IMG/VR virus record: IMGVR_UViG_2896607866_000004
Coordinates: 1-40,991 of that record
Length of the DNA stretch: 40,991 nucleotides
Origin: a virus
Lineage: Duplodnaviria; Heunggongvirae; Uroviricota; Caudoviricetes
Reading direction: 5' to 3' (one strand)
In this document: positions 894 to 15,922 of the stretch, piece after piece
How positions within the stretch are numbered: the first letter of the stretch is position 1
Layout of the letters: each line of letters starts with the position of its first letter
The notes under the pieces: model-generated
Told to the model about the DNA's origin: nothing
Seen by the model: the letters and a program-made list of their open reading frames with translations, nothing else
Databases searched by the model: none
Made by a program: the position numbers and the translations under genes

Positions 894-2180
894 TTACCCC
901 GCTTTCTTATGGGGCATGCATGGGACACTTTCAGATAGTCTTCTGTTAAGAAGTTCTATCTGTTCGTGATTGTTGTCTTTCATCCATGCTCCGTAAACAT
1001 TGAATACCATTTGTGCGTTTGTGTGGCCCATCTGGCTTGCGATAAAACTAGGATTAGCTCCTGCGGCAAGTGACCAGCATGCATAGGTATGCCTGGATTG
1101 ATACGATTTTCTGTGTCTCAGACCTGCGCGTTTTAAGATACTTGTCCATGACTCCCTGATGGAGTCAACCTTATAGTGCGGTCCGGAAAACTGCCGCTGT
1201 TTTATTACCTGAGGACTAAAAACAAAAGTGCATTTATGCACAGCAGTTCTCCCATATTCCCTCTGCTTTACCTCTACAGAATGTTGCTTTCCAAGCATAG
1301 TCATTTCTGCCTGGCTTTTAAGAGCATCAATAGCTGGTTGAACCAGATGAATTGTCCTTCCGGTGCCAGCATCGGTTTTTGGTGGAGTGAATTCGCCAAG
1401 TTTTGTATAATTCCTACGGATGGTTATAGTCCTTGCTTTAAGGTCGATATCTTCCCATGCCAGCGATACCAACTCCCCGTGACGAATACCCGTGTATACA
1501 GCGAGAATCCACAGGTTTTTTGTTTGTTGATGACGGCAAGCCTCAATAAAACGAATAAATTCGTCACGGGTGAGTGGATCTGGTTTTACCTTGGACTTTT
1601 TTAAGGGGGCCAGACCGTTAAATGGGTTTCCTGAGGTATAACCATTATCTGTTGCAAATTGAAACATTCCAGCTATGGTTGTCATATAGTAGTTTACCGT
1701 GACCACTGAGCGCCCTTTTATGGAAGAAGTCTTTCCATTAGAAAGCTTTTGGTAACCGGTCAACAAATCTCTCCTTACGAAAAGTAAATCCTCTTTTGTT
1801 ATGGATGAAACCAGTTTTTTTTCACCTAACATTGGTAACATGTTTTTAATTACTGACTGGTAACGGTTAAGTGCATTCGCACAAATCTCAATTTTCTTAA
1901 GGTCCAACCATTTTTCCGAAAGTGCCTTAACGGTTATCTCTCTTTTTCCCAGACCAAAGTGTTTCAGGTTAGGGGAATTAGGGAACTGCGCGGCGTAGTC
2001 GAAACTCCCCATTCTGATTGCAAAACAAACGGAAGTGCGAAGTTCACCAGCGATCTTCCGGTTTTTGGCTGTGTCAGGAACACCGAGGTTTTCTCTGACA
2101 CGTTTGCCGTTATAGTGAAACCATATGCGTAGTGATCCGCCATGGTTTTCAACGCCTGTCGGGTATGATGCGTTACTCAT
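894..2180 (-). CDS. int: phage integrase, tyrosine recombinase (428 aa)
   Basis: Long ORF at the prophage edge facing the chromosome. C-terminal region has the tyrosine-recombinase pattern (…HGELVSLAWEDIDL…, …RHTYACWSLAAGANPSFIASQMGHT…). Confidence 0.9.
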   Translation of the reverse strand: MSNASYPTGVENHGGSLRIWFHYNGKRVRENLGVPDTAKNRKIAGELRTSVCFAIRMGSFDYAAQFPNSPNLKHFGLGKREITVKALSEKWLDLKKIEICANALNRYQSVIKNMLPMLGEKKLVSSITKEDLLFVRRDLLTGYQKLSNGKTSSIKGRSVVTVNYYMTTIAGMFQFATDNGYTSGNPFNGLAPLKKSKVKPDPLTRDEFIRFIEACRHQQTKNLWILAVYTGIRHGELVSLAWEDIDLKARTITIRRNYTKLGEFTPPKTDAGTGRTIHLVQPAIDALKSQAEMTMLGKQHSVEVKQREYGRTAVHKCTFVFSPQVIKQRQFSGPHYKVDSIRESWTSILKRAGLRHRKSYQSRHTYACWSLAAGANPSFIASQMGHTNAQMVFNVYGAWMKDNNHEQIELLNRRLSESVPCMPHKKAG

Positions 2181-3560: not shown

Positions 3561-4306
3561 GCTTTATCCTCCCATCCGATCACCTGGAAAAGCCCCATCT
3601 TCGGGTGATACCAGCGTGTGCCGCGTGGTTCAGCCTCTGACATCATTTGGTGGAACGCCGCCATAAATGGCTCAAGCTCGACGATAGCCCTGCGAGACAA
3701 CAGACCGTCCGGAGTCATGAATTCGTGGGTGTCTGTAGGAATTTGATATGCGTTCACCAGATTCCGACACTTGGCGTCACTCATTCCACTTTTGGCTACC
3801 ACCTGGCGGTAACCGACATATCCGGCGCGCATTGTGCCGCGTTTGATGTTCTCCACAGCTTTGGTGACCGTTTCGATCTTCTTTTCAACATGACTCAGGC
3901 GCTTTTGCTGGCGAACGGCATCGGCGGCCATTGCAGCGATCATCTCCATTTCCGTCAGCGGCGCGTGAGTTCGGAAATAGCTGTTAACCAGTTCGCGCTG
4001 AACCTGCCAGGCCAGATCGTCGGTGAAGGATTTCACCAACATCAAATAACCGGATTCGACCAGTACAATTCCTGCTGCTGCAAATTTTGAGAAAGTACCG
4101 TCAGGGAGGTGTCGACGAATTTCGTCGGAACCTAATTCGAAGTAGTCTTCCCCTTCAATAAGACGAGACTTGTTTTCGCGGAAATTGCGTCCCGCTGTTC
4201 CGTCCGGGCGTTGGTGCACTTCATCAATCATCGCCAGCGTCACCACGCGCTGACCGCGATATTCGATTACCGGAAACTGTTTGTTGTTGATGGTTACAGT
4301 ATTCAT
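3557..4306 (-). CDS. antirepressor-like protein, ORF6N-type N-terminal domain plus KilAC (ANT) C-terminal domain
   Basis: Start MNTVTINNKQF at 4306 with GGAG SD 6 nt upstream (ORF track long form starts 4381). N-terminus matches the ORF6N/Bro-N pattern; the C-terminal 130 aa are about 75-80% identical to the C-terminus of the 10803..11516 product. Confidence 0.7.
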   Translation of the reverse strand: MNTVTINNKQFPVIEYRGQRVVTLAMIDEVHQRPDGTAGRNFRENKSRLIEGEDYFELGSDEIRRHLPDGTFSKFAAAGIVLVESGYLMLVKSFTDDLAWQVQRELVNSYFRTHAPLTEMEMIAAMAADAVRQQKRLSHVEKKIETVTKAVENIKRGTMRAGYVGYRQVVAKSGMSDAKCRNLVNAYQIPTDTHEFMTPDGLLSRRAIVELEPFMAAFHQMMSEAEPRGTRWYHPKMGLFQVIGWEDKA

Positions 4307-4349
4307 TTTTATCTCCAGACAGCCCGGCGTGTAATACCGGGCATATGTA

Positions 4350-5180
4350 TTACTTAACCTGAATAAATGGTGTGTTGGCACCGCTGGTCATGTACTGCAG
4401 CAGTGTGCCGTTCCATTTATTGATGGCTTCCAGCTCCATAACACCGGGGTTCTGGCGCAGAGCTTCACCGCGTAAACGAATTGCATCGGCTTCGGCCTGG
4501 GCTTTTGTGCGAATCGCATCAGCCTGTCCGGCAGCTTCTGCACGCAGCATGTTGGCTTCTGCTTCGCGTTGTTTAACTTCCTGCTCGCGTTGCAGTGTTT
4601 TCTGGTTTGCCGTGACTTTGGCGTTAATGCTGTCGATAACGGTTGGTGGGTACTCTGGCTTACCCACATATGAGAGGCTCATTACCTGAATACCGATGGG
4701 TGTCATTTCTTCCTGGATGTCTTTTAGAGCGGCATCCAGTAATTCAGATTTACCGCCGTCAATAAATTTGTCGGTGGTCATTTTGCTGGCCAGCCGATTG
4801 AGTGCGTCGGCGATCTTCTGGCGCAGGTCTGTATCGGTAATGTCATCCACGCCTTTGCGGTAGGTCTGAAATACCGTGGTAACTTTCGATGGATCAACCT
4901 TATAGGCCACGCCGATGTGATAACCGATGGTTGTGCCGTCGCTCATCTGGAAGCTGAATGGATCATCGTAGGTCTTCATTTGTTTGAAGGTCGGGAAAAT
5001 GTAAACTTCAGTATTCCAGCCAGTCCAGTAGCGACCAACACCGACCACCTCACCGACACCTTTGTCGTCGCCCAGTTTGTTGACTTTGATACCCACATTA
5101 CCTGGTTCAACGCGATCGCAACCTACAAGTCCGAAGACAGCCAGACTGACCGCGAAAACAAGCGCAATTGTTTTTTTCAT
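4350..5180 (-). CDS. SPFH/band-7 (prohibitin-like) domain lipoprotein (276 aa)
   Basis: N-terminal signal peptide with lipobox LVGC; central region resembles SPFH domains by eye; C-terminal coiled-coil-like Ala/Glu/Gln-rich tail; strong GGAGG SD; start overlaps upstream stop (ATGA). Confidence 0.65.
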   Translation of the reverse strand: MKKTIALVFAVSLAVFGLVGCDRVEPGNVGIKVNKLGDDKGVGEVVGVGRYWTGWNTEVYIFPTFKQMKTYDDPFSFQMSDGTTIGYHIGVAYKVDPSKVTTVFQTYRKGVDDITDTDLRQKIADALNRLASKMTTDKFIDGGKSELLDAALKDIQEEMTPIGIQVMSLSYVGKPEYPPTVIDSINAKVTANQKTLQREQEVKQREAEANMLRAEAAGQADAIRTKAQAEADAIRLRGEALRQNPGVMELEAINKWNGTLLQYMTSGANTPFIQVK

Positions 5181-9229: not shown

Positions 9230-9919
9230 CTAACCAAATCTGTTTATGTTGAATGGTACTGATGAGATCACTTTAGACTGGATATAAAGCAGAGCTAACC
9301 CCTCTTTTTCGATGCTCCATGGTTGATAATTGGGGTTATCAGATAACACCATGATTTTGCTTCCAATTTTTTGAAGCCTTTTCACGTAGCATTCTCCATC
9401 AAAACAAAATGCATAAATACCATCGCCATCAAAATAAGTTACTGTCTTATCAAGAAAAAGAAGGTCACCAGGTGAGATTGTGGGAGCCATACTGTCTCCT
9501 CTGGCGTTACCTATTTCTATATTTTTGAATGCCCGATTTCCAACAAGACGTCGGGCATATTCAGGATCAAGTTCTATTGAGCGCACTACATCTATCAAGT
9601 CACCACGGACATGAGTTCCATCACCGCAACTAAACTCAACATCAAGGACATTAAACACGACGCTATCTGTTCTTGTCTGGTGTTTCTCTTGCGAGGAAAA
9701 GGTTGGTGAGGAGTCTTCACCTAAGAACCAGGATTGTGGATAACCGCTAATCTCTGATAAATGCGCGAGCTTATCACTCCGTGGAAATGTTTTTCCTGTT
9801 GTCCAGTACTGCACTGATTGCGCACTCACACCTAACTTGCGGGCCAGTTGAGCCTGAGTCCATCCTTTTGCTTTCAGCATCGCGGCTATTCGATTTTCCG
9901 TGTTTTTGACGTTCTTCAT
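9230..9919 (-). CDS. cI: CI-type repressor (N-terminal HTH, C-terminal S24 LexA-like peptidase domain)
   Basis: HTH …GWTQAQLARKLGVSAQSVQYWTTGK…; C-terminal GDSMAPTI… with downstream Lys (…YVKRL…) typical of the Ser/Lys dyad. First ATG is at 9919 (ORF track extends to 9925 via TTG). Divergent from the cro-like gene. Confidence 0.85.
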   Translation of the reverse strand: MKNVKNTENRIAAMLKAKGWTQAQLARKLGVSAQSVQYWTTGKTFPRSDKLAHLSEISGYPQSWFLGEDSSPTFSSQEKHQTRTDSVVFNVLDVEFSCGDGTHVRGDLIDVVRSIELDPEYARRLVGNRAFKNIEIGNARGDSMAPTISPGDLLFLDKTVTYFDGDGIYAFCFDGECYVKRLQKIGSKIMVLSDNPNYQPWSIEKEGLALLYIQSKVISSVPFNINRFG

Positions 9920-10052
9920 GACCAAATCCTGTGGGTTTCTTTACAAGGATAAATCTTTACTTGATTTTAGTGTATTCGATCCTTTTGCAACTTGCATGTT
10001 AATTTAAACTTGATGTATTCTTGATTTATAAAGTTAATGTTGGTGCTTTGTT
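9920..10052. promoter_or_regulatory. divergent cI/cro promoter-operator region (OR-like)
   Basis: 133-bp AT-rich intergenic region between divergent cI and cro-like genes. Contains an 11-bp palindrome TGCAAcTTGCA (about 9986-9996) and three CTTGAT motifs (about 9958-10026). Individual operators not assigned. Confidence 0.5.
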
Positions 10053-10325
10053 ATGAAAGGAAATGATTACGACAAACTTCGTGCATTAATTGCGCAAAAT
10101 GCCATAGCGCGAAATCTGGGTGTGACACCGCAAGCGGTGAATCAGTGGTTTTCAAAAAGCACAATTCCTGCCCGTTTCGTTTTACGCGTATGTGAAGTAG
10201 TTGCATGTAAGGTCACGCCGCATGGCTTAAGGCCAGATCTTTATCCTCACCCTGAAGATGGAATTCCTGATTCGTTACGCAAAATTTCAAATCCAAGCTT
10301 AGCGCACACAGAGGATGAGAAGTGA
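10053..10325 (+). CDS. cro: Cro-like HTH protein (90 aa)
   Basis: Small ORF divergent from cI; motif …LGVTPQAVNQWFSKSTIPARFVLRV… resembles Cro/YdaS-type HTH. Confidence 0.6.
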   Translation: MKGNDYDKLRALIAQNAIARNLGVTPQAVNQWFSKSTIPARFVLRVCEVVACKVTPHGLRPDLYPHPEDGIPDSLRKISNPSLAHTEDEK

Positions 10326-10395: not shown

Positions 10396-10689
10396 TTAGC
10401 GTTCGCTGAGAAGTTGTTGGTAAGCCTTAAAGGATGCGAACTGCATTCTACCTTTGGCATTGAGTCCAATGCCTTCGCTTGTACACCAGGTGATGAACTC
10501 GGTTGTATCCGCTTCAACTTTAATAACTCGTTGCCCGCTTCTTTCGACACGCTTAATCAATTTTTCAGCGTCGTGTTTCCACTCGGTGTAACTGTCGGAG
10601 AGCACATCTGCATCAGTAAAAATCTTTTTGAACTCATGATACTGAATAGCATCGCGAAACCAGAATAAACCAACGGCCTGAACTTTCAT
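10396..10689 (-). CDS. hypothetical protein (97 aa), opposite in orientation to the surrounding rightward operon
   Basis: ATG 10689 preceded by a near-perfect SD (AAGGAGGT, 6-nt spacer); balanced charged composition. Overlapping plus-strand ORF 10315..10668 is the less likely alternative. Confidence 0.5.
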   Translation of the reverse strand: MKVQAVGLFWFRDAIQYHEFKKIFTDADVLSDSYTEWKHDAEKLIKRVERSGQRVIKVEADTTEFITWCTSEGIGLNAKGRMQFASFKAYQQLLSER

Positions 10690-10802
10690 GTCGAACCTCC
10701 TTTGGTTCTTTTGTTTATAGGGATCAAAAGGATAACTGAAGGATGGTTCGGCACCAACAAGTACGAATGTGCGGAATCTTAAAAGAATTTATCCGTAAGG
10801 AG

Positions 10803-11516
10803 ATGGCAGTGAACACCGCAATTTTTAACGACAAAGTATCCATGACCAGCGTTGAAATCGCAGAGCTGGTTGGAAGTCAACACGGCAATGTCAGAATATC
10901 AATAGAGCGTCTGGCAAAACGCGGGGTGATTCAACTTCCTGCAATGCAAAAAGTTGAGAACGAACAATCATTTAGCCAAAACAAATTCACAAACGCATAT
11001 ATTTTCGAAGGCGAACAAGGCAAACGCGACAGCATCATTGTCGTCGCACAACTTTGCCCGGAATTCACTGCCCGCCTGGTAGATCGTTGGCGCGAACTGG
11101 AAGAGCAGGTGCGCAAACCAATGAGCGAAATCGAAATGGTTGCCGCGATGGCTCTTGAAGCCGTTCGTCAGCAAAAACGCCTCGACAAGATGGAAGAAAA
11201 AGTCAGTCACGTTACTGAAACTGTCGAACAAATCAAAAGAGGCACCATCCGCGATGGTTATGCAGGCTACCGTCAGCTGGTGGCGGAAACGGGTATGTCA
11301 GATGCGAAATGCCGCAATCTGGTGAACATCTATCAAATTCCAACTGATACTCACGAATTTCTTACTCCGGACGGATTGTTGTCACGCCGCGCAATTGTTG
11401 CAGTGGAACCGTTTATGGCTGCTTTCCATCGTATGATGAGCGAAGCGGAACCGAGAGGAACTCGTTGGTATCACCCGAAAATGGGGCTGTTCCAGGCGCT
11501 GGGCTGGCAGGGGTGA
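10803..11516 (+). CDS. antirepressor-like protein, Rha/AntA-type N-terminal domain plus KilAC (ANT) C-terminal domain
   Basis: N-terminus …SMTSVEIAELVGSQHGNVRISIERLAKRG…; C-terminus near-identical to that of 3557..4306. Start ambiguous (ATG 10803 abuts the SD; GTG 10809 has better spacing). Confidence 0.7.
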   Translation: MAVNTAIFNDKVSMTSVEIAELVGSQHGNVRISIERLAKRGVIQLPAMQKVENEQSFSQNKFTNAYIFEGEQGKRDSIIVVAQLCPEFTARLVDRWRELEEQVRKPMSEIEMVAAMALEAVRQQKRLDKMEEKVSHVTETVEQIKRGTIRDGYAGYRQLVAETGMSDAKCRNLVNIYQIPTDTHEFLTPDGLLSRRAIVAVEPFMAAFHRMMSEAEPRGTRWYHPKMGLFQALGWQG

Positions 11517-11536
11517 CGATGTTTACGGGTAATTTA

Positions 11537-11710
11537 TGCAAGTCCTCAATCGCTGGTTCCGTGACGGAAGGGGGCGTCGTGTTCACGTTATACGCTGGGA
11601 GCCTGAAACACAGCGGGTTATTTATCTGCGTGATGGTTATCCATATGAATGTTTCAGCCCGTTGTGGTTGTTCAGGCGTGATTTTGTTGAGTGCGAAGCG
11701 CCGCCATAAT
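11537..11710 (+). CDS. hypothetical small protein (57 aa)
   Basis: ATG 21 bp after the upstream stop; MQVLNRWFRDGRGRRVHVIRWEPETQRVIYLRDGYPYECFSPLWLFRRDFVECEAPP. Weak SD; under the ORF-track cutoff. Confidence 0.25.
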
Positions 11711-11730
11711 AACGGCGCGATAATGGAAAT

Positions 11731-12039
11731 TTACACGAAGCGGATCTGGAGTTTTTTCCCTGTTGCGCGTGCAAATTTTTTCAGTGTGGCAAATGATGGT
11801 CCGCTGACACCTGAGGCAAGATTGCTTTCCATTCTGGTGATGGCGGTTGCTTTGGTACCCATGCGTTCAGCAACTTCAGCCTGGGTGAGACCAGCTTCTT
11901 TGCGTGCGGCCAGCATTTCATCAAGCAGTGCGAACTCGTCGGCGATGGCGTCGTATTCTGCTTTAAAAGCCGGGTCATCCATCCATTTAGCTGCCATTTC
12001 ATCGTGTGTCATGATTGGTGGGTTACGTTTACCAGTCAT
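11731..12039 (-). CDS. HigA-like antitoxin (XRE-family HTH, 102 aa)
   Basis: HTH …LTQAEVAERMGTKATAITRMESNLASG…; AGGAGGT SD; start overlaps the 3' end of the upstream toxin gene by 11 nt. Confidence 0.7.
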   Translation of the reverse strand: MTGKRNPPIMTHDEMAAKWMDDPAFKAEYDAIADEFALLDEMLAARKEAGLTQAEVAERMGTKATAITRMESNLASGVSGPSFATLKKFARATGKKLQIRFV

Positions 12040-12358
12040 GCTTAACCTCCTTCATTCTGGTTTCAGCTTTTTTACGCTCAGCTGGTGGAGTTTTTTGAGT
12101 TTTCTTGATGAAGCTGTGCAGCATGATGATGCGCTTCCCTGTCAGTGTGCAGTAAAAAACGCGGGCAATGCCATCGCTGCCTTTAATCCGAAGCTCAAAA
12201 AGCCCATCACCAAAGGCGCTGGTGTGAGGTTCTCCGAGATTGCTGCCGTATACCTTCATGCGTTCAACAAGATGCTGGTATCTGGCACGCATACTCAATG
12301 GAAGCTGATCGACCTCCAGTCGGACCTCTTCACTGTAGTATTCGATAGTGTAGTTCAT
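12029..12358 (-). CDS. HigB-like toxin (RelE/ParE superfamily, Gp49-type), about 109 aa
   Basis: …YYSEEVRLEVDQLPLSMRARYQHLVERMKVYGSNLGEPHTSAFGDGLFELRIKGSDGIARVFYCTLTGKRIIMLHSFIKKTQKTP… resembles phage Gp49/HigB-type toxins; toxin precedes antitoxin. Start placed at internal ATG 12358 (ORF track uses TTG 12394). Confidence 0.6.
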   Translation of the reverse strand: MNYTIEYYSEEVRLEVDQLPLSMRARYQHLVERMKVYGSNLGEPHTSAFGDGLFELRIKGSDGIARVFYCTLTGKRIIMLHSFIKKTQKTPPAERKKAETRMKEVKHDW

Positions 12359-12395
12359 ACAGCAAAACATAACAAAATCGTTATATCTGCACAAT

Positions 12396-12460
12396 ATATT
12401 GATTCTGCAATTTCGGGACGTTACACTGTCTCTGCACCTTATAAAGCGGGTGCCGGGATT
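12396..12460 (+). repeat. 65-bp direct repeat, copy 1 (leader/5' region of Rha-like gene 1)
   Basis: ATATTGATTCTGCAATTTCGGGACGTTACACTGTCTCTGCACCTTATAAAGCGGGTGCCGGGATT; 64/65 identical to 13052..13116. Confidence 0.8.
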
Positions 12461-12676
12461 TGCACCCCGGAATTGTCAACGGCGATATACGACGCGCCAG
12501 CGTCTTTTTTATCGTCCGCGCTCACGCACGCCAGAATTATGGTGGGCTGGGCAGGGGAGCCGAAAGGCTCGCCGGTCTCCGTTGACGCCGGTAGTGCAAA
12601 CCCTGTTCAGTCCGCCACCAGCGAGATTTGCACCTCCGGTGGTGGAAGTTTTCCACAGTCAACGGAGGCTGCCATC

Positions 12677-13039
12677 ATGGCTACAGTCCCAACCCACTCA
12701 TTCCTCAAAATTGAGACCGTCAACGGCAAGGCCGTTATTTTCTCTTTGCATGTGGCCTGCCACTTTAAGCGCATGCACCAGAACATCGTAGACAAAATCG
12801 AGTATCTGAACTGCTCGCGCGAATTTTTTACCCGCAATTTCATACCGGGTACTTACCACATCTATGACGACTCTCTGCGTGGTTATTACATCACCCTTGA
12901 TGGTCTGATGCTGCTTCAGCTTGGGTTAAGTCTGCGCACAATGCGGTACTACGAGAGTTGCATTGAAGCGTTCCATGAGGCTGAAACCGTCCAGGTGCAT
13001 TCCGCTTTCCGTCGTCATCAACGGGAGGTGCACCTATGA
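12677..13039 (+). CDS. Rha-like phage regulatory protein 1 (120 aa from ATG 12677; may extend upstream)
   Basis: GGAGG SD 8 nt before ATG 12677; MATVPTHSFLKIETVNGKAVIFSLHVACHFKRMHQNIVDKIEYLNCSREFF… resembles the Rha N-terminal domain. The frame is open far upstream (artefactual 524-aa ORF) but has no canonical start near the conserved leader. Confidence 0.5.
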   Translation: MATVPTHSFLKIETVNGKAVIFSLHVACHFKRMHQNIVDKIEYLNCSREFFTRNFIPGTYHIYDDSLRGYYITLDGLMLLQLGLSLRTMRYYESCIEAFHEAETVQVHSAFRRHQREVHL

Positions 13040-13896
13040 TCCGCTACCTGAATATTGATTCTGCAATTTCGGGACGTTACACTGTCTCCGCACCTTATAA
13101 AGCGGGTGCCGGGATTGGCGTCCTGAAATTCAATATAGAGCATAACCGCGCTCATGCGGTTTTTTCGTGTCATGAGCATTGCTACGCCCAAATTATGGTG
13201 GGGCGTGCAGGGGCATCGCAAGATGCGCCGGGTTCTATGTTGACCGGTTACGCCAACCCTGTACGTCTCACCACCTCTGTGATTGGCGTCCCATGTGATG
13301 AGTTCTTTGAATTCAACATAGGGGCTGTCACCATGACTACTCTCCCAACCCTCTCTCAACCTGAAATTGCCATCGTTGATGGTCAGGCTGTTACTTCATC
13401 CCTGGCTGTTGCTAACTTCTTCTCTAAACGTCATGACGATGTTCTGAAAAAGATCCGCATTTTGGATTGTTCTCCAGAGTTTTGTGCCCGCAATTTTGCG
13501 GAGACATCAATTTTGGTACGCCAGCCCAACGGCGGTACTCGCAAACTTCCCTGCTACCAAATCACCCGCGACGGCTTCGCCTTCCTTGCTATGGGCTTCA
13601 CTGGTAAACGTGCCGCCCGGTTCAGAGAGGCATACATCAATGCCTTTAACCAGATGGAGAGGAGCTTATCAGGAGCTGGTGCGGCTGACATGTCATCTGT
13701 CGCACAAAACGCCAGAGGCGTATACCTGCATTTGCGTGAAATCCATCAAATCTGGACAAGCCAGCTTTACCCAATGCTTAAGGCCGTTGAATCTCCGCTG
13801 GCTGGCAAACTGTACGACCGTGTAGGTGATGCTGTTTTTGGTGCTGCACTTGTTGATTCCAGGCTGAATGGTTCTGACAAGGAGGTGCGCCCATGA
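13036..13896 (+). CDS. Rha-like phage regulatory protein 2 (286 aa from ATG 13036; alternative start ATG 13333 giving 187 aa)
   Basis: GGAGGTG SD 5 nt before ATG 13036, which overlaps the upstream TGA. Rha motif …AIVDGQAVTSSLAVANFFSKRHDDVLKKIRILDCSPEFCARNF…YQITRDGFAFLAMGFTGKRAARFREAYINAFNQME… begins at residue 100. Confidence 0.6.
   Translation: MIRYLNIDSAISGRYTVSAPYKAGAGIGVLKFNIEHNRAHAVFSCHEHCYAQIMVGRAGASQDAPGSMLTGYANPVRLTTSVIGVPCDEFFEFNIGAVTMTTLPTLSQPEIAIVDGQAVTSSLAVANFFSKRHDDVLKKIRILDCSPEFCARNFAETSILVRQPNGGTRKLPCYQITRDGFAFLAMGFTGKRAARFREAYINAFNQMERSLSGAGAADMSSVAQNARGVYLHLREIHQIWTSQLYPMLKAVESPLAGKLYDRVGDAVFGAALVDSRLNGSDKEVRP
13052..13116 (+). repeat. 65-bp direct repeat, copy 2 (5' region of Rha-like gene 2)
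   Basis: 64/65 identical to 12396..12460; the single difference (TCT/TCC) is synonymous in the open frame. Confidence 0.8.
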
Positions 13897-14126
13897 TCCG
13901 CCACATCGTTAATTTCCTGTATCACCGATACAACCATTGCCCCCGTGTGGGGCAGTGGTTCACCACCAGCAACGGCTACGTTCTGCGGGTTTGCCTGGTC
14001 AGTACCGAAAGCCAGAAGGTTGTCTGCCAGGTTCAGGGACGTACTCATACCCTGAGTTATCCGCTGGTGGCGTTTCAGTCCGGAAAAATGTTTAAACGCC
14101 TGGGAGGTGGCTATGCGTCCGTCTGA
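13893..14126 (+). CDS. hypothetical protein (77 aa)
   Basis: AAGGAGGTG SD and ATG overlapping the upstream stop in the same ATGATCCGC context as the Rha-like gene 2 start. Confidence 0.4.
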   Translation: MIRHIVNFLYHRYNHCPRVGQWFTTSNGYVLRVCLVSTESQKVVCQVQGRTHTLSYPLVAFQSGKMFKRLGGGYASV

Positions 14127-15033
14127 TCTTCTGCTCGATTTTGGACATCCGGTTGCTTATTACCCTGGGCTCGTTAAATACATGGGAAGTCCGCACGCTG
14201 TTATTTTCTTTGGTCAGATTTTTTACTGGCAGGATAAAGCACATGCAGCGGAAGGCGTACATAAAACGCGTGAAGAGATACAACACGAAACCGGACTTAC
14301 ATTTGAACAACAGGCTGTAGCGCGTAAGCATCTTGTGTCCAGAGGCATTTTGGTTGAAACCAACAAGCGTCTTGAGCACAAAATGTTCTACCGTATAGAT
14401 TGTGAGCGCCTTAATGAAATTATCAATGAAAACAATCAGTTTTCCCGAAATGGGGAAACCCGTTTTCGGGAAACTGTAAAACCCAATTTCGCGGAGGAGG
14501 GAAAGCCTTCACCGCGGACACGGGAAACCCCTCGCCGCGGAGAAGGGAAAACCAATTTCGATCTTACAGAGAATACAACAGAGAATACAACAGAGATTAC
14601 TTCAGAGAATACTACAGAGAGTAAAAACACTATTGGCGCATCCGCTGACGCGTCTGCACCAGCGCGTTCTTCCCGACAGGAATATTCACCGGAATTTGAA
14701 CAGGCCTGGCAGGAATATCCAAAACGTGCTGGTGGTAACTCAAAATCCGCAGCCTTCAAAGCCTGGAAAGCCCGGCTCAGGGAGGGAATAAAACCTGAAG
14801 CCATGCTTGATGGCGTGAAACGCTATGCCGCCTGGGTACGTGCCACAGGAAATACCGGCACACAGTTCGTGAAGCAGGCTGCGACGTTCTTTGGACCCGA
14901 TCGTCACTTCGAAGACTTCTGGCAACAGCCAGCCGCTCCCGGAGGTGGGCGACAGCGACAGGTCGATGTCCTGGCTGGCCTGGGAGCCATGTCTGACAAA
15001 TTCGGTAAATCCAGTGACAAACTGACATTCTGA
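14113..15033 (+). CDS. replication initiation protein (lambda O-like replisome organiser) containing internal iterons
   Basis: GGAGG SD 5 nt before ATG 14113; first gene of a replication module followed by DnaC-like and DnaB-like genes; internal TENTTENTTEITSENTTE peptide encoded by tandem 12-bp DNA repeats. Confidence 0.6.
   Translation: MRPSDLLLDFGHPVAYYPGLVKYMGSPHAVIFFGQIFYWQDKAHAAEGVHKTREEIQHETGLTFEQQAVARKHLVSRGILVETNKRLEHKMFYRIDCERLNEIINENNQFSRNGETRFRETVKPNFAEEGKPSPRTRETPRRGEGKTNFDLTENTTENTTEITSENTTESKNTIGASADASAPARSSRQEYSPEFEQAWQEYPKRAGGNSKSAAFKAWKARLREGIKPEAMLDGVKRYAAWVRATGNTGTQFVKQAATFFGPDRHFEDFWQQPAAPGGGRQRQVDVLAGLGAMSDKFGKSSDKLTF
14566..14625 (+). repeat. five tandem 12-bp iteron-like repeats (ACAGAGAATACA), putative phage replication origin
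   Basis: ACAGAGAATACA ACAGAGAATACA ACAGAGATTACT TCAGAGAATACT ACAGAGAGTAAA inside the initiator gene, analogous to ori-lambda inside O. Confidence 0.55.
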
Positions 15034-15043
15034 GGTGACAGCG

Positions 15044-15922
15044 ATGATGACGTTTAACCTGCGTGAACAACAAAAAAGACTACAGGCGCGAATGGATGAG
15101 TTACGGGCAGAGATTGCATTTGCTCAGAAGGGCGAAAAGCCATGGCCTTATCGTTCCTGCCTGATGCGTGAAGGTCGCGGATATTGCGAAAAACATGGCG
15201 AATATCACACGCATATACTGGTGTGGAGCGATCGTAATGGCGAGGACAGAGAAAAAATTTCATGCTGCCCTGACTGCTTAATCGCTGAGGCCAACGATTT
15301 GACCATGGAGCTGTCGTCCATCAAGGCGGAAGAGCTGACTGATAACGCCGGAATTGCCCTGCGTTTTCGGGACTGCGAGTTTGATAATTATCTGGAGGTT
15401 AATCCTGACGCAGCCAGAAATCTTGCGGCCTGTCGCCGCTATGCGGAGAACTGGCCAGATATGCTGGAGAACGGTACCAGTCTTGTTATGACCGGCAGTT
15501 GTGGTACCGGAAAAAATCATCTGGCTGTGGCTATGGCAAAACACATCATCCGTAACTATCTGGCCAGTGTGGAGATCACCGACGTGATGCGCCTTACCCG
15601 TGCTGTGAAAAATTGCTGGCGGAATGACAGCGAAAAAACAGCGGATGAAGTTATTGAGCGTTATGCGTCAATGGATTTGCTGATCATCGACGAAGTTGGC
15701 GTTCAGTTTGGCAGCGCGGCTGAAATGGCTATTTTGCAGGAAATTATCAACGCCAGGTACGAAAGTATCTTGCCCACCATTCTGATCAGTAACCTCTCAC
15801 CGGAAGAGTTGTGGGCGTTCATCAGTCCCCGAATTGCCGACAGGATCACAGACGGGGGACGCAACTGGTTGTCGTTTAACTGGCCCAGTTACCGTTCTCG
15901 TATCAGAGGTGTGGCTGCATGA
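15044..15922 (+). CDS. DnaC-like helicase loader (AAA+ ATPase, IstB-like)
   Basis: Walker A GSCGTGKNHLA and Walker B LLIIDEVG; position after the initiator. ATG 15044 (ORF track uses GTG 15035). Confidence 0.8.
   Translation: MMTFNLREQQKRLQARMDELRAEIAFAQKGEKPWPYRSCLMREGRGYCEKHGEYHTHILVWSDRNGEDREKISCCPDCLIAEANDLTMELSSIKAEELTDNAGIALRFRDCEFDNYLEVNPDAARNLAACRRYAENWPDMLENGTSLVMTGSCGTGKNHLAVAMAKHIIRNYLASVEITDVMRLTRAVKNCWRNDSEKTADEVIERYASMDLLIIDEVGVQFGSAAEMAILQEIINARYESILPTILISNLSPEELWAFISPRIADRITDGGRNWLSFNWPSYRSRIRGVAA

Follow-up and report, generated by a model that had tools for sequence, protein, structure and literature searches.

The window, here the whole 40,991-nucleotide stretch of DNA that was analysed, is by its gene content a 41-kb lambdoid prophage with terminase, portal and tail genes to the right of the replication genes, and IMG/VR contig L087 matches it at 99.94% identity over 7 kb. 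The toxin-antitoxin (TA) module and the landmarks of the prophage lie at the following positions.

894-2180, minus strand: integrase
9230-9925, minus strand: CI-like S24 repressor
10053-10325: Cro/YdaS-like gene
11536-11709, plus strand: DUF4222 gene, between an Ant/Rha-like gene and the TA module
11731-12039, minus strand: antitoxin gene, ATG at 12039 and stop at 11731, 102 aa
12029-12358, minus strand: toxin gene, ATG at 12358 and stop at 12029, 109 aa, Gp49/HigB-like
14107-17310: replication genes

The two minus-strand open reading frames (ORFs) overlap by 11 nt (12029-12039), exactly at the coordinates given in the original prediction. That prediction had also put the neighbouring genes on the opposite strand; the flanking genes are indeed on the plus strand here, and the module is likewise antisense in 49 related phage contigs. 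The DUF4222 gene to the left of the module had gone unmentioned. The 109-aa start of the toxin is typical of its family, the 3193 relatives returned by a database search being mostly 107-111 aa long and opening with M-N/S/K-Y-T-I. A 121-aa toxin beginning at TTG 12394 was considered and rejected, since relatives start at ATG and the added codons overlap the conserved promoter described below. On the plus strand, a 524-aa frame (11465-13039) runs stop-free through the whole module; it is not supported as a real gene.

The toxin and antitoxin proteins

Judged by its sequence, the predicted toxin is a member of the Gp49/Tad branch of the RelE/ParE superfamily. It matches PF05973 (Gp49) with an E value of 6.4e-26 across profile positions 2-90 of 90, and this is the only Pfam family matched at E <= 0.01; it also matches phrog_2523 (E 1.5e-45). 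The antitoxin consists of an N-terminal extension followed by an XRE-type helix-turn-helix (HTH) at about residues 44-98, which matches HTH_3 with an E value of 4.9e-11. With 90.7 bits against a gathering cut-off of 23.9 for the toxin and 42.9 bits against 23 for the antitoxin, both assignments are far beyond chance, bearing out the Gp49/HigB-type toxin and XRE-HTH antitoxin first read from the ORFs. No match to the canonical HigB families PF05015 and PF09907 was found for the toxin at E <= 0.01, the NCBIfam upstrm_HI1419 toxin model scored it at 21.8 bits, below the cut-off of 62.85, and all matches of the antitoxin to the NCBIfam HipB, MqsA and Y4mF models were far below their cut-offs. Hig systems take their name from the 'reverse' order in which the toxin gene comes first. 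The label 'Hig-like' therefore stands for the architecture of the module, with the toxin first and an HTH antitoxin, but describes architecture only, because the toxin belongs to the Gp49/Tad branch and not to the families of Rts1 HigB.

Most relatives of the toxin share 60-70% identity with it, those from Betaproteobacteria and Nitrospirae included, many being named 'type II toxin-antitoxin system RelE/ParE family toxin'. An antitoxin homologue lies directly downstream of the toxin, on the same strand, at 79 of 80 loci drawn from a one-genome-per-species collection that spans Gammaproteobacteria, Betaproteobacteria, Nitrospirae and others; the sole exception is cut by a contig end. Among the close phage copies the antitoxin is found at +319 in 49 of 49. 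The toxin-first order with overlapping genes is thus a feature of the window and of the family at large. Furthermore, among solved structures both proteins find their best relatives in a single HigBA complex (6AF3/6AF4), as chains A and B, the antitoxin matching the HigA chain 6AF3_B with an E value of 4e-4, which suggests that the toxin may inhibit growth and be neutralised by direct binding of the antitoxin.

An AlphaFold (AF2) model of the toxin, built on an alignment of 57 relatives (61-98% identity, 24 invariant columns), reached a pLDDT of 91.9 and a pTM of 0.85. It contains a short N-terminal strand, two helices, four main strands and a long helix at residues 92-108, that is, a RelE/BECR fold with the long helix at the C-terminus that characterises Gp49-like toxins. 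Foldseek searches of the PDB with this model placed HigB (6AF4) and HigB1 (7AWK, and 7NBU, which is ribosome-bound) first, followed by YafQ, RelE and YoeB, with TM scores of 0.74-0.77 to HigB 6AF3/6AF4 and HigB1 7AWK/7NBU. The RelE/ParE fold on which the original prediction had staked the toxin assignment is therefore recovered in the predicted structure, which resembles HigB and HigB1. The pocket residues of Mycobacterium tuberculosis HigB1, taken from PMC9098466, were mapped onto the toxin by profile alignment.

Toxin E55: HigB1 E66
Toxin R57: HigB1 R68
Toxin R66: HigB1 R77
Toxin F83: HigB1 F93
Toxin K85: HigB1 K95
Toxin Q88: HigB1 Q98
Toxin K89: HigB1 K99

Five of these toxin residues (E55, R57, R66, K85 and K89) are invariant in the 57 relatives, F83 almost so, and Q88 no more than the majority residue. 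Mutation of R68, R77, K95 or K99 abolishes HigB1 toxicity (PMC9098466). PF05973 is described as a family of ribosome-dependent mRNases with toxin-antitoxin gene order (PMC11980606). On the strength of the fold, the pocket residues and this family description, we infer that the toxin would act as a ribosome-dependent mRNase.

The HigB1 residues K58 and N73 align with S47 and D62 of the toxin, both non-conserved, and toxicity is absent from M. tuberculosis HigB2 and HigB3, in which several pocket residues are missing (PMC9098466). In addition, the toxin start has been lost (ATG to ATA) in three close copies, PhiR5_2 (L084), L132 and L133. Such observations could be taken to mean that the pair is decaying or has been domesticated and survives as a remnant, the toxin being an inactive RNase and the HTH protein just a transcription factor. 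This reading is very improbable given that the ORFs, start codons, Shine-Dalgarno (SD) sequence and promoter are all intact in the window, that the invariant columns of the toxin include the five catalytic residues, and that the gene pair is kept at nearly all of the loci surveyed.

Among characterised systems, HigBA of Streptococcus pneumoniae (6AF3/6AF4) is the best match in sequence and structure for both proteins. Its HigB aligns with the toxin at E 1.5e-5, or 1.1e-8 with a profile, and the two systems agree in having the toxin gene first, an antitoxin of the HTH type and a long helix at the C-terminus of the toxin; they differ in that identity is about 20% in structural alignments, the S. 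pneumoniae toxin chain has 141 aa and its host belongs to another phylum. M. tuberculosis HigB1 (7AWK; TM 0.77, rmsd 2.2 A, about 23% identity) shares the long basic C-terminal helix, however the M. tuberculosis TAC system needs a SecB-like chaperone as third gene and the window has no such gene. The Rts1 HigBA system of Proteus vulgaris has the same reverse order and an XRE-HTH antitoxin, but Rts1 HigB, a ribosome-dependent RNase of RelE fold, belongs to another Pfam family and is only a weak structural match to the toxin (Foldseek E 0.26-0.34).

A further related system is phage N15 gp49/gp48, which we take to be one of the validated Tad-type modules and which, with the Tad-Ata modules, is a founder of PF05973. 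Both modules are toxin-first and borne by temperate phages, and N15 gp49, a PF05973 protein, is 45% identical to the toxin over residues 15-105 (tblastn). N15 is a linear plasmid prophage, for which a stabilising role is obvious, whereas the prophage in the window is integrated, and the subfamily in the window is unlike that of N15 in its 109-aa length and conserved MNYTI..YY N-terminus. HigBA2 of Acinetobacter baumannii (plasmid pAB120) likewise combines a Gp49-domain toxin, toxin-first order and an HTH antitoxin; its toxin is an active RNase, and the promoter in front of the toxin gene is repressed by the antitoxin, the toxin acting as co-repressor (PMC5906591). For validated TA modules whose 'Tad' toxins contain a GP49 domain, the same paper refers to Dziewit et al. 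2007. HigBA2 differs from the module in being plasmid-borne and in its gene lengths (357 and 303 bp), and on these sizes it was rejected as a member of the same subfamily. A 109-aa homologue on an Acinetobacter plasmid, at 63% identity, does belong to the window's subfamily and is another pair.

Promoter, operator and translation signals

The expression signals predicted for the module are all on the minus strand.

12366-12394: predicted promoter/operator, from a conserved upstream pattern
12394-12389: -35 box TTGTGC
12384-12369: palindrome ATAAC-N6-GTTAT, within the 17-nt spacer
12371-12366: -10 box TATGTT, 7 nt before the toxin ATG at 12358
12045-12052: SD sequence AAGGAGGT, 5 nt before the antitoxin ATG
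11698-11718: GC-rich hairpin, immediately past the antitoxin stop

An alignment of the 60 nt that precede the toxin start at the 80 loci gave the consensus ttg-N8-aaTAACAtATTTGTTAttaT, with ATG or GTG after a further 6-7 nt. The exact core TAAC-N6-GTTA is present upstream of the toxin at 73 of the 80 loci and in 66 of these 73 ends 10-11 nt before the start codon; elsewhere it occurs about 5 times in 542 kb of flanking sequence, and in the window it is found once, at 12370. The geometry is the same in all listed lambdoid copies, and as judged from these alignments the predicted promoter pattern is conserved across phyla. A scan for consensus promoters at a threshold of 9 of 12 positions did not list the toxin promoter, in which TTGTGC and TATGTT together match 7 of 12. 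Two alternative -10 boxes, TATAAC (12385-12380) and TATATT (12398-12393), were rejected, neither having a usable -35 or being conserved in relatives. The position of the palindrome between the -35 and -10 boxes makes it a predicted operator for autoregulation, and in A. baumannii HigBA2, a Gp49-type system, autorepression by the HTH antitoxin has been demonstrated (PMC5906591).

The strong SD claimed for the antitoxin can be read directly from the sequence as AAGGAGGT, with its GGAGG core 6 nt before the ATG, and is encoded by conserved K-E-V codons at the C-terminus of the toxin. Across the relatives, an SD-like 4-mer precedes 34 of 38 antitoxin starts as against 0 of 78 toxin starts. With the -10 box 7 nt before the ATG, the transcript should start at the toxin start codon or within about one base of it, and because across the family 6-7 nt separate the -10 box from the start codon and none of the toxin starts has an SD, the toxin mRNA is probably leaderless and weakly translated. 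Many toxin relatives start with GTG, a poor start codon for leaderless translation in E. coli. Nothing specific on leaderless Hig toxins was found in the literature searched, and how the toxin:antitoxin ratio is set in reverse TA operons has been described as an open question (PMC5906591).

At the other end of the operon, the hairpin at 11698-11718 has a 9-bp stem, a centroid energy of -14.4 kcal/mol and a z score of -1.5, and is kept in the copy of Shigella phage POCJ13 in a different context. As an intrinsic terminator it is unconvincing on account of this z score and the missing U-tract; it may, rather weakly, be put forward as a 3' end or transcript stabiliser.

A mobile cassette beside an isrK/C4 antirepressor unit

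The extent of the module is delimited by an empty site. In the Stx2a phage Stx2_14040 (L003), which is otherwise collinear, the sequences corresponding to window positions 10791-11706 and 12396-13044 are contiguous, and because this phage joins both flanks without the intervening DNA, 11707-12395 is a discrete block, the TA cassette, of 689 bp. The block carries a new stop codon for the DUF4222 gene, the 3' hairpin, both TA genes and the promoter as far as the -35 box. POCJ13 shares only window positions 11696-12386 in a different neighbourhood, the shared segment lying in the nin region of this phage and of Shigella phage 75/02 Stx. In all, the 49 close copies in IMG/VR occupy at least four neighbourhoods.

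DUF4222, TA, isrK-C4-Rha
NinE, TA, P22AR-type antirepressor
Ren-gp20-gp21, TA, others
NinB-NinE, TA, replication genes

In these 49 copies the adjoining genes recognised by probes are antisense to the TA genes, with the exception of POCJ13 gp20, which is itself reversed; in contigs L104 and L107, ORFs upstream of the toxin are co-directional with it. No repeats that would point to transposition, direct or inverted, were found on either side of the cassette, and at the left junction about 10 nt are shared, GCGCC(G/A)CCA. The module is taken to be a moron-like cassette with its own predicted promoter.

Temperate phages carry the module as an accessory cassette at several positions, and it is scarce and patchily distributed: of 5426 complete E. 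coli genomes 40 contain a match, none of them on plasmids. Both observations would fit anti-phage defence by abortive infection as the main selected function, in which a superinfecting phage would stop host transcription, the labile antitoxin would decay and the RNase would halt translation, a course compatible with the same molecular mechanism as that favoured below. RelE/ParE toxins have been discussed as defence toxins (PMC11980606), and a Gp49-like domain is present in the PADLOC candidate NsnC, whose C-terminus gives a partial match to toxin residues 49-99 (E 2.8e-9), found together with generic HTH matches. However, no defence-system model in PADLOC-DB 2.0 was matched by the TA pair, and most relatives reside in the chromosomes of free-living Beta- and Gammaproteobacteria, with no phage context apparent in this analysis, leaving defence as a possible but rather doubtful primary function.

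Just beyond the cassette, and outside the TA module, lies a divergent unit whose features are all on the plus strand except where no strand is given.

12399-12622, plus strand: divergent neighbour unit
12399-12404 (TTGATT) and 12422-12427 (TACACT), plus strand: isrK-type promoter with 17-nt spacing
12434-12510, plus strand: isrK-like small RNA (Rfam 61.8 bits, gathering 50)
12491-12510, plus strand: isrK-like terminator
12535-12622, plus strand: C4-like antisense RNA (Rfam 80.1 bits, gathering 45)
12678-13039, plus strand: Rha antirepressor ORF with its own GGAGG-ATG at 12678
13090-13166: second isrK-like RNA, with a terminator at 13144-13161
13191-13278: second C4-like RNA

TACACT ends 6 nt before the first base of the isrK-like RNA, and the downstream isrK-C4-Rha unit very probably has its own promoter. 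The isrK/C4 RNA genes coincide with the 'Ash' halves (PF10554) of two 'Ash-Rha' ORFs; these RNAs inside the 5' parts of the 'Rha-like genes', and their promoter, were absent from the original prediction. The placement of the module inside the rightward early operon is accordingly only partly accurate, as the downstream Rha units begin with their own isrK/C4 genes and isrK-type promoter, and because this promoter, 4 bp past the cassette, starts those units, the cassette lies between two transcription units. Splitting of a DUF4222-Ash-Rha fusion gene by the cassette was also considered and ruled out, the GenBank CDS of Stx2_14040 being in a frame other than that of DUF4222, the 'Ash' part corresponding to isrK/C4 RNA genes and the Rha ORF having its own ribosome-binding site and ATG. 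Transcripts from the rightward early promoter would cross the cassette antisense, with the IsrK terminators just beyond.

In Gifsy-1, the isrK promoter drives isrK-orf45-anrP, which includes the antirepressor, and IsrK activates translation in trans (PMC4825925), while C4 represses ant in phages P1 and P7 (PMC12197685). The literature searched held nothing specific on a link between TA modules and IsrK. It is conceivable that the antitoxin also regulates the IsrK/C4-controlled antirepressor unit and so influences prophage induction, the two forming one functional unit: 49 of 55 enterobacterial copies have the 5' end of isrK at a distance of 76-83 nt from the toxin start, regardless of where they sit in the phage genome, and in the window 4 bp separate the -35 boxes of the TA and isrK-type promoters and the centre of the palindrome is about 57 bp upstream of the isrK start. 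The spacing is variable, however, at 76, 80 or 82-83 nt, so that helical phasing is not kept, which argues against strict face-of-helix coupling. Moreover, Stx2_14040 has isrK-C4-Rha at the same place without the cassette, the POCJ13-type copies and all distant relatives have no isrK, and simple co-transfer could explain the linkage. Regulation of the antirepressor by the antitoxin is thus unlikely, and co-transfer is a likelier source of the TA-isrK linkage than functional coupling.

A related arrangement, in which the cassette and the IsrK/C4 antirepressor unit would form one switch coupling toxin activity to the lysis-lysogeny decision, is comparably improbable. Here antitoxin bound to the palindrome would tune antirepressor expression from its position upstream of isrK, and, alternatively or in addition, antisense rightward lytic transcription would shut off the antitoxin supply at induction.

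Proposed function and significance

The reading preferred here, and held with good confidence, is that of an intact, toxin-first type II TA operon of the Gp49 (PF05973) branch of RelE/ParE. The cassette would be active while the prophage is repressed, its transcription running opposite to that of the lytic genes. Inefficient translation from a leaderless mRNA would probably limit toxin output, while the near-perfect SD would keep the antitoxin in excess. The N-terminal part of the antitoxin would neutralise the toxin, and its HTH would bind ATAAC-N6-GTTAT between the -35 and -10 boxes, repressing the operon. The toxin would enter the ribosomal A site and cleave mRNA there, as M. tuberculosis HigB1 does. 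The most likely main effect of such an operon would be addiction, stabilising the prophage or its accessory region, with abortive-infection defence as a possible additional effect. A literature search found no experiment on the toxin's subfamily.

The pair is a real but ordinary TA module of a well-known family. Close copies are already listed in RefSeq and GenBank, either as HigB/HigA or as a RelE/ParE toxin next to an HTH protein, the annotated toxin often being truncated at its N-terminus. About 22,000 entries are assigned to PF05973 in Pfam, and validated homologues are known from phage N15, Acinetobacter, Streptococcus and Mycobacterium. To this knowledge the layout of the promoter and the link with isrK, of which no description was found in the literature searched, are modest additions.

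As a 689-bp TA 'moron' found in several insertion contexts and with an empty site for comparison, the cassette is a clean example from nature. Its recurrent physical link to an RNA-regulated antirepressor, in Stx-type and related prophages, could bear on induction. The combination of a leaderless toxin and a strong-SD antitoxin provides a testable answer to the question of the toxin:antitoxin ratio raised in PMC5906591 and, if true, this combination together with the TAAC-N6-GTTA operator would be a general and undescribed way to keep the antitoxin in excess.

Linkage of the toxin-antitoxin cassette to the isrK/C4 antirepressor unit

Of the 55 enterobacterial copies of the HigB-like toxin and XRE-HTH antitoxin cassette, 49 adjoin an isrK/C4 antirepressor unit in a back-to-back arrangement, as surveyed across window positions 12358-12434 and loci L001 and L084-L135. 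The distance from the toxin ATG to the isrK 5′ end is 76-83 nt in the linked copies, independent of the position of the pair in the phage genome, and a literature search found no paper on this linkage. In the window, the RNA genes to the right of the cassette occur in tandem:

12434-12622, plus strand: isrK-like sRNA then C4-like antisense RNA, copy 1 (Rfam, both above gathering scores)
13090-13278, plus strand: isrK-like sRNA then C4-like antisense RNA, copy 2 (Rfam, both above gathering scores)

Each of the two copies is followed downstream by an ORF with a Rha antirepressor domain, the first of which has its own GGAGG-ATG, at 12678. The Pfam "Ash" match (PF10554) in the long window ORFs coincides with the isrK/C4 RNA genes, and "Ash family protein" labels in this region may therefore be translations of RNA genes.

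On the left side of the cassette, the ends of the neighboring DUF4222 gene were compared between the window (11698-11709) and the empty site of Stx2a phage Stx2_14040 (L003, 3290-3315). The stop codon TAA of the window gene (11707-11709) comes from the cassette, whereas the empty-site gene is two codons longer and its end falls within the -35 box of an isrK-type promoter.

Toxin start codons and the antisense reading frame

In public annotations the toxin is cut to 76-87 aa through the choice of internal Met codons as starts; the annotated regions are 4630-4860 in phage A8 (L001), 4334-4597 in POCJ13 (L002), 3630-3893 in EC11 (L086) and 3834-4064 in PhiR5_2 (L084). The 109-aa toxin ORF is intact at full length in A8 and POCJ13, and in EC11 an "ash family protein" CDS reaches antisense into the toxin gene. 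ATA replaces ATG at the toxin start in PhiR5_2 and two further loci (L132 and L133) in which the antitoxin is intact, suggesting that the toxin may have been inactivated to leave an orphan antitoxin.

One antisense frame crosses the entire window cassette without a stop codon:

11465-13039, especially 11731-12358, plus strand: 524-aa ORF including this frame

All copies that adjoin DUF4222 likewise have no stop in this frame, and neither do those of the L117-L122 group, one member of which matches the Edwardsiella toxin variant. These stop-free copies represent four to six lineages with 78-94% identity; the cassette copies of the nin region carry one to three stops in the same frame. The probability of no stop is approximately 5% under random synonymous codons, and the open frame may reflect either ancestry or selection against untranslated RNA.

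Other features of the window

10396-10689, minus strand: a further antisense gene within the early right region, encoding 97 aa and matching phrog_4753 (E 1e-48)
18432-18739, 39809-39988 and 40745-40948, all three intervals together: four tRNA genes, and CssrB and IS009 RNA matches

The phrog_4753 gene is followed by a strong hairpin (10389-10365) and overlaps a 117-aa plus-strand ORF, without a family match, at the expected place of a cII-like gene. Four tRNA genes are present in the prophage, and the matches to IS009 and to CssrB, a Shigella chromosomal sRNA family, are close to the right end of the window.

Relatives on plasmids and in a candidate defense protein

Within the plasmid collection, 141 Salmonella plasmids have a gene that shares approximately 71% nucleotide identity with the antitoxin half of the cassette, and there are matches on 19 plasmids of Acinetobacter as well. 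A plasmid of Acinetobacter pittii (L167) encodes a toxin of 109 aa with 63% identity. Most of the 160 matching plasmid records, all matches together, are typed as conjugative. Residues 49-99 of the toxin partly match the C-terminus of the PADLOC model NsnC (positions 233-283 of 293, E 2.8e-9), and this partial match indicates that NsnC, a candidate defense protein, contains a fused Gp49-like domain.
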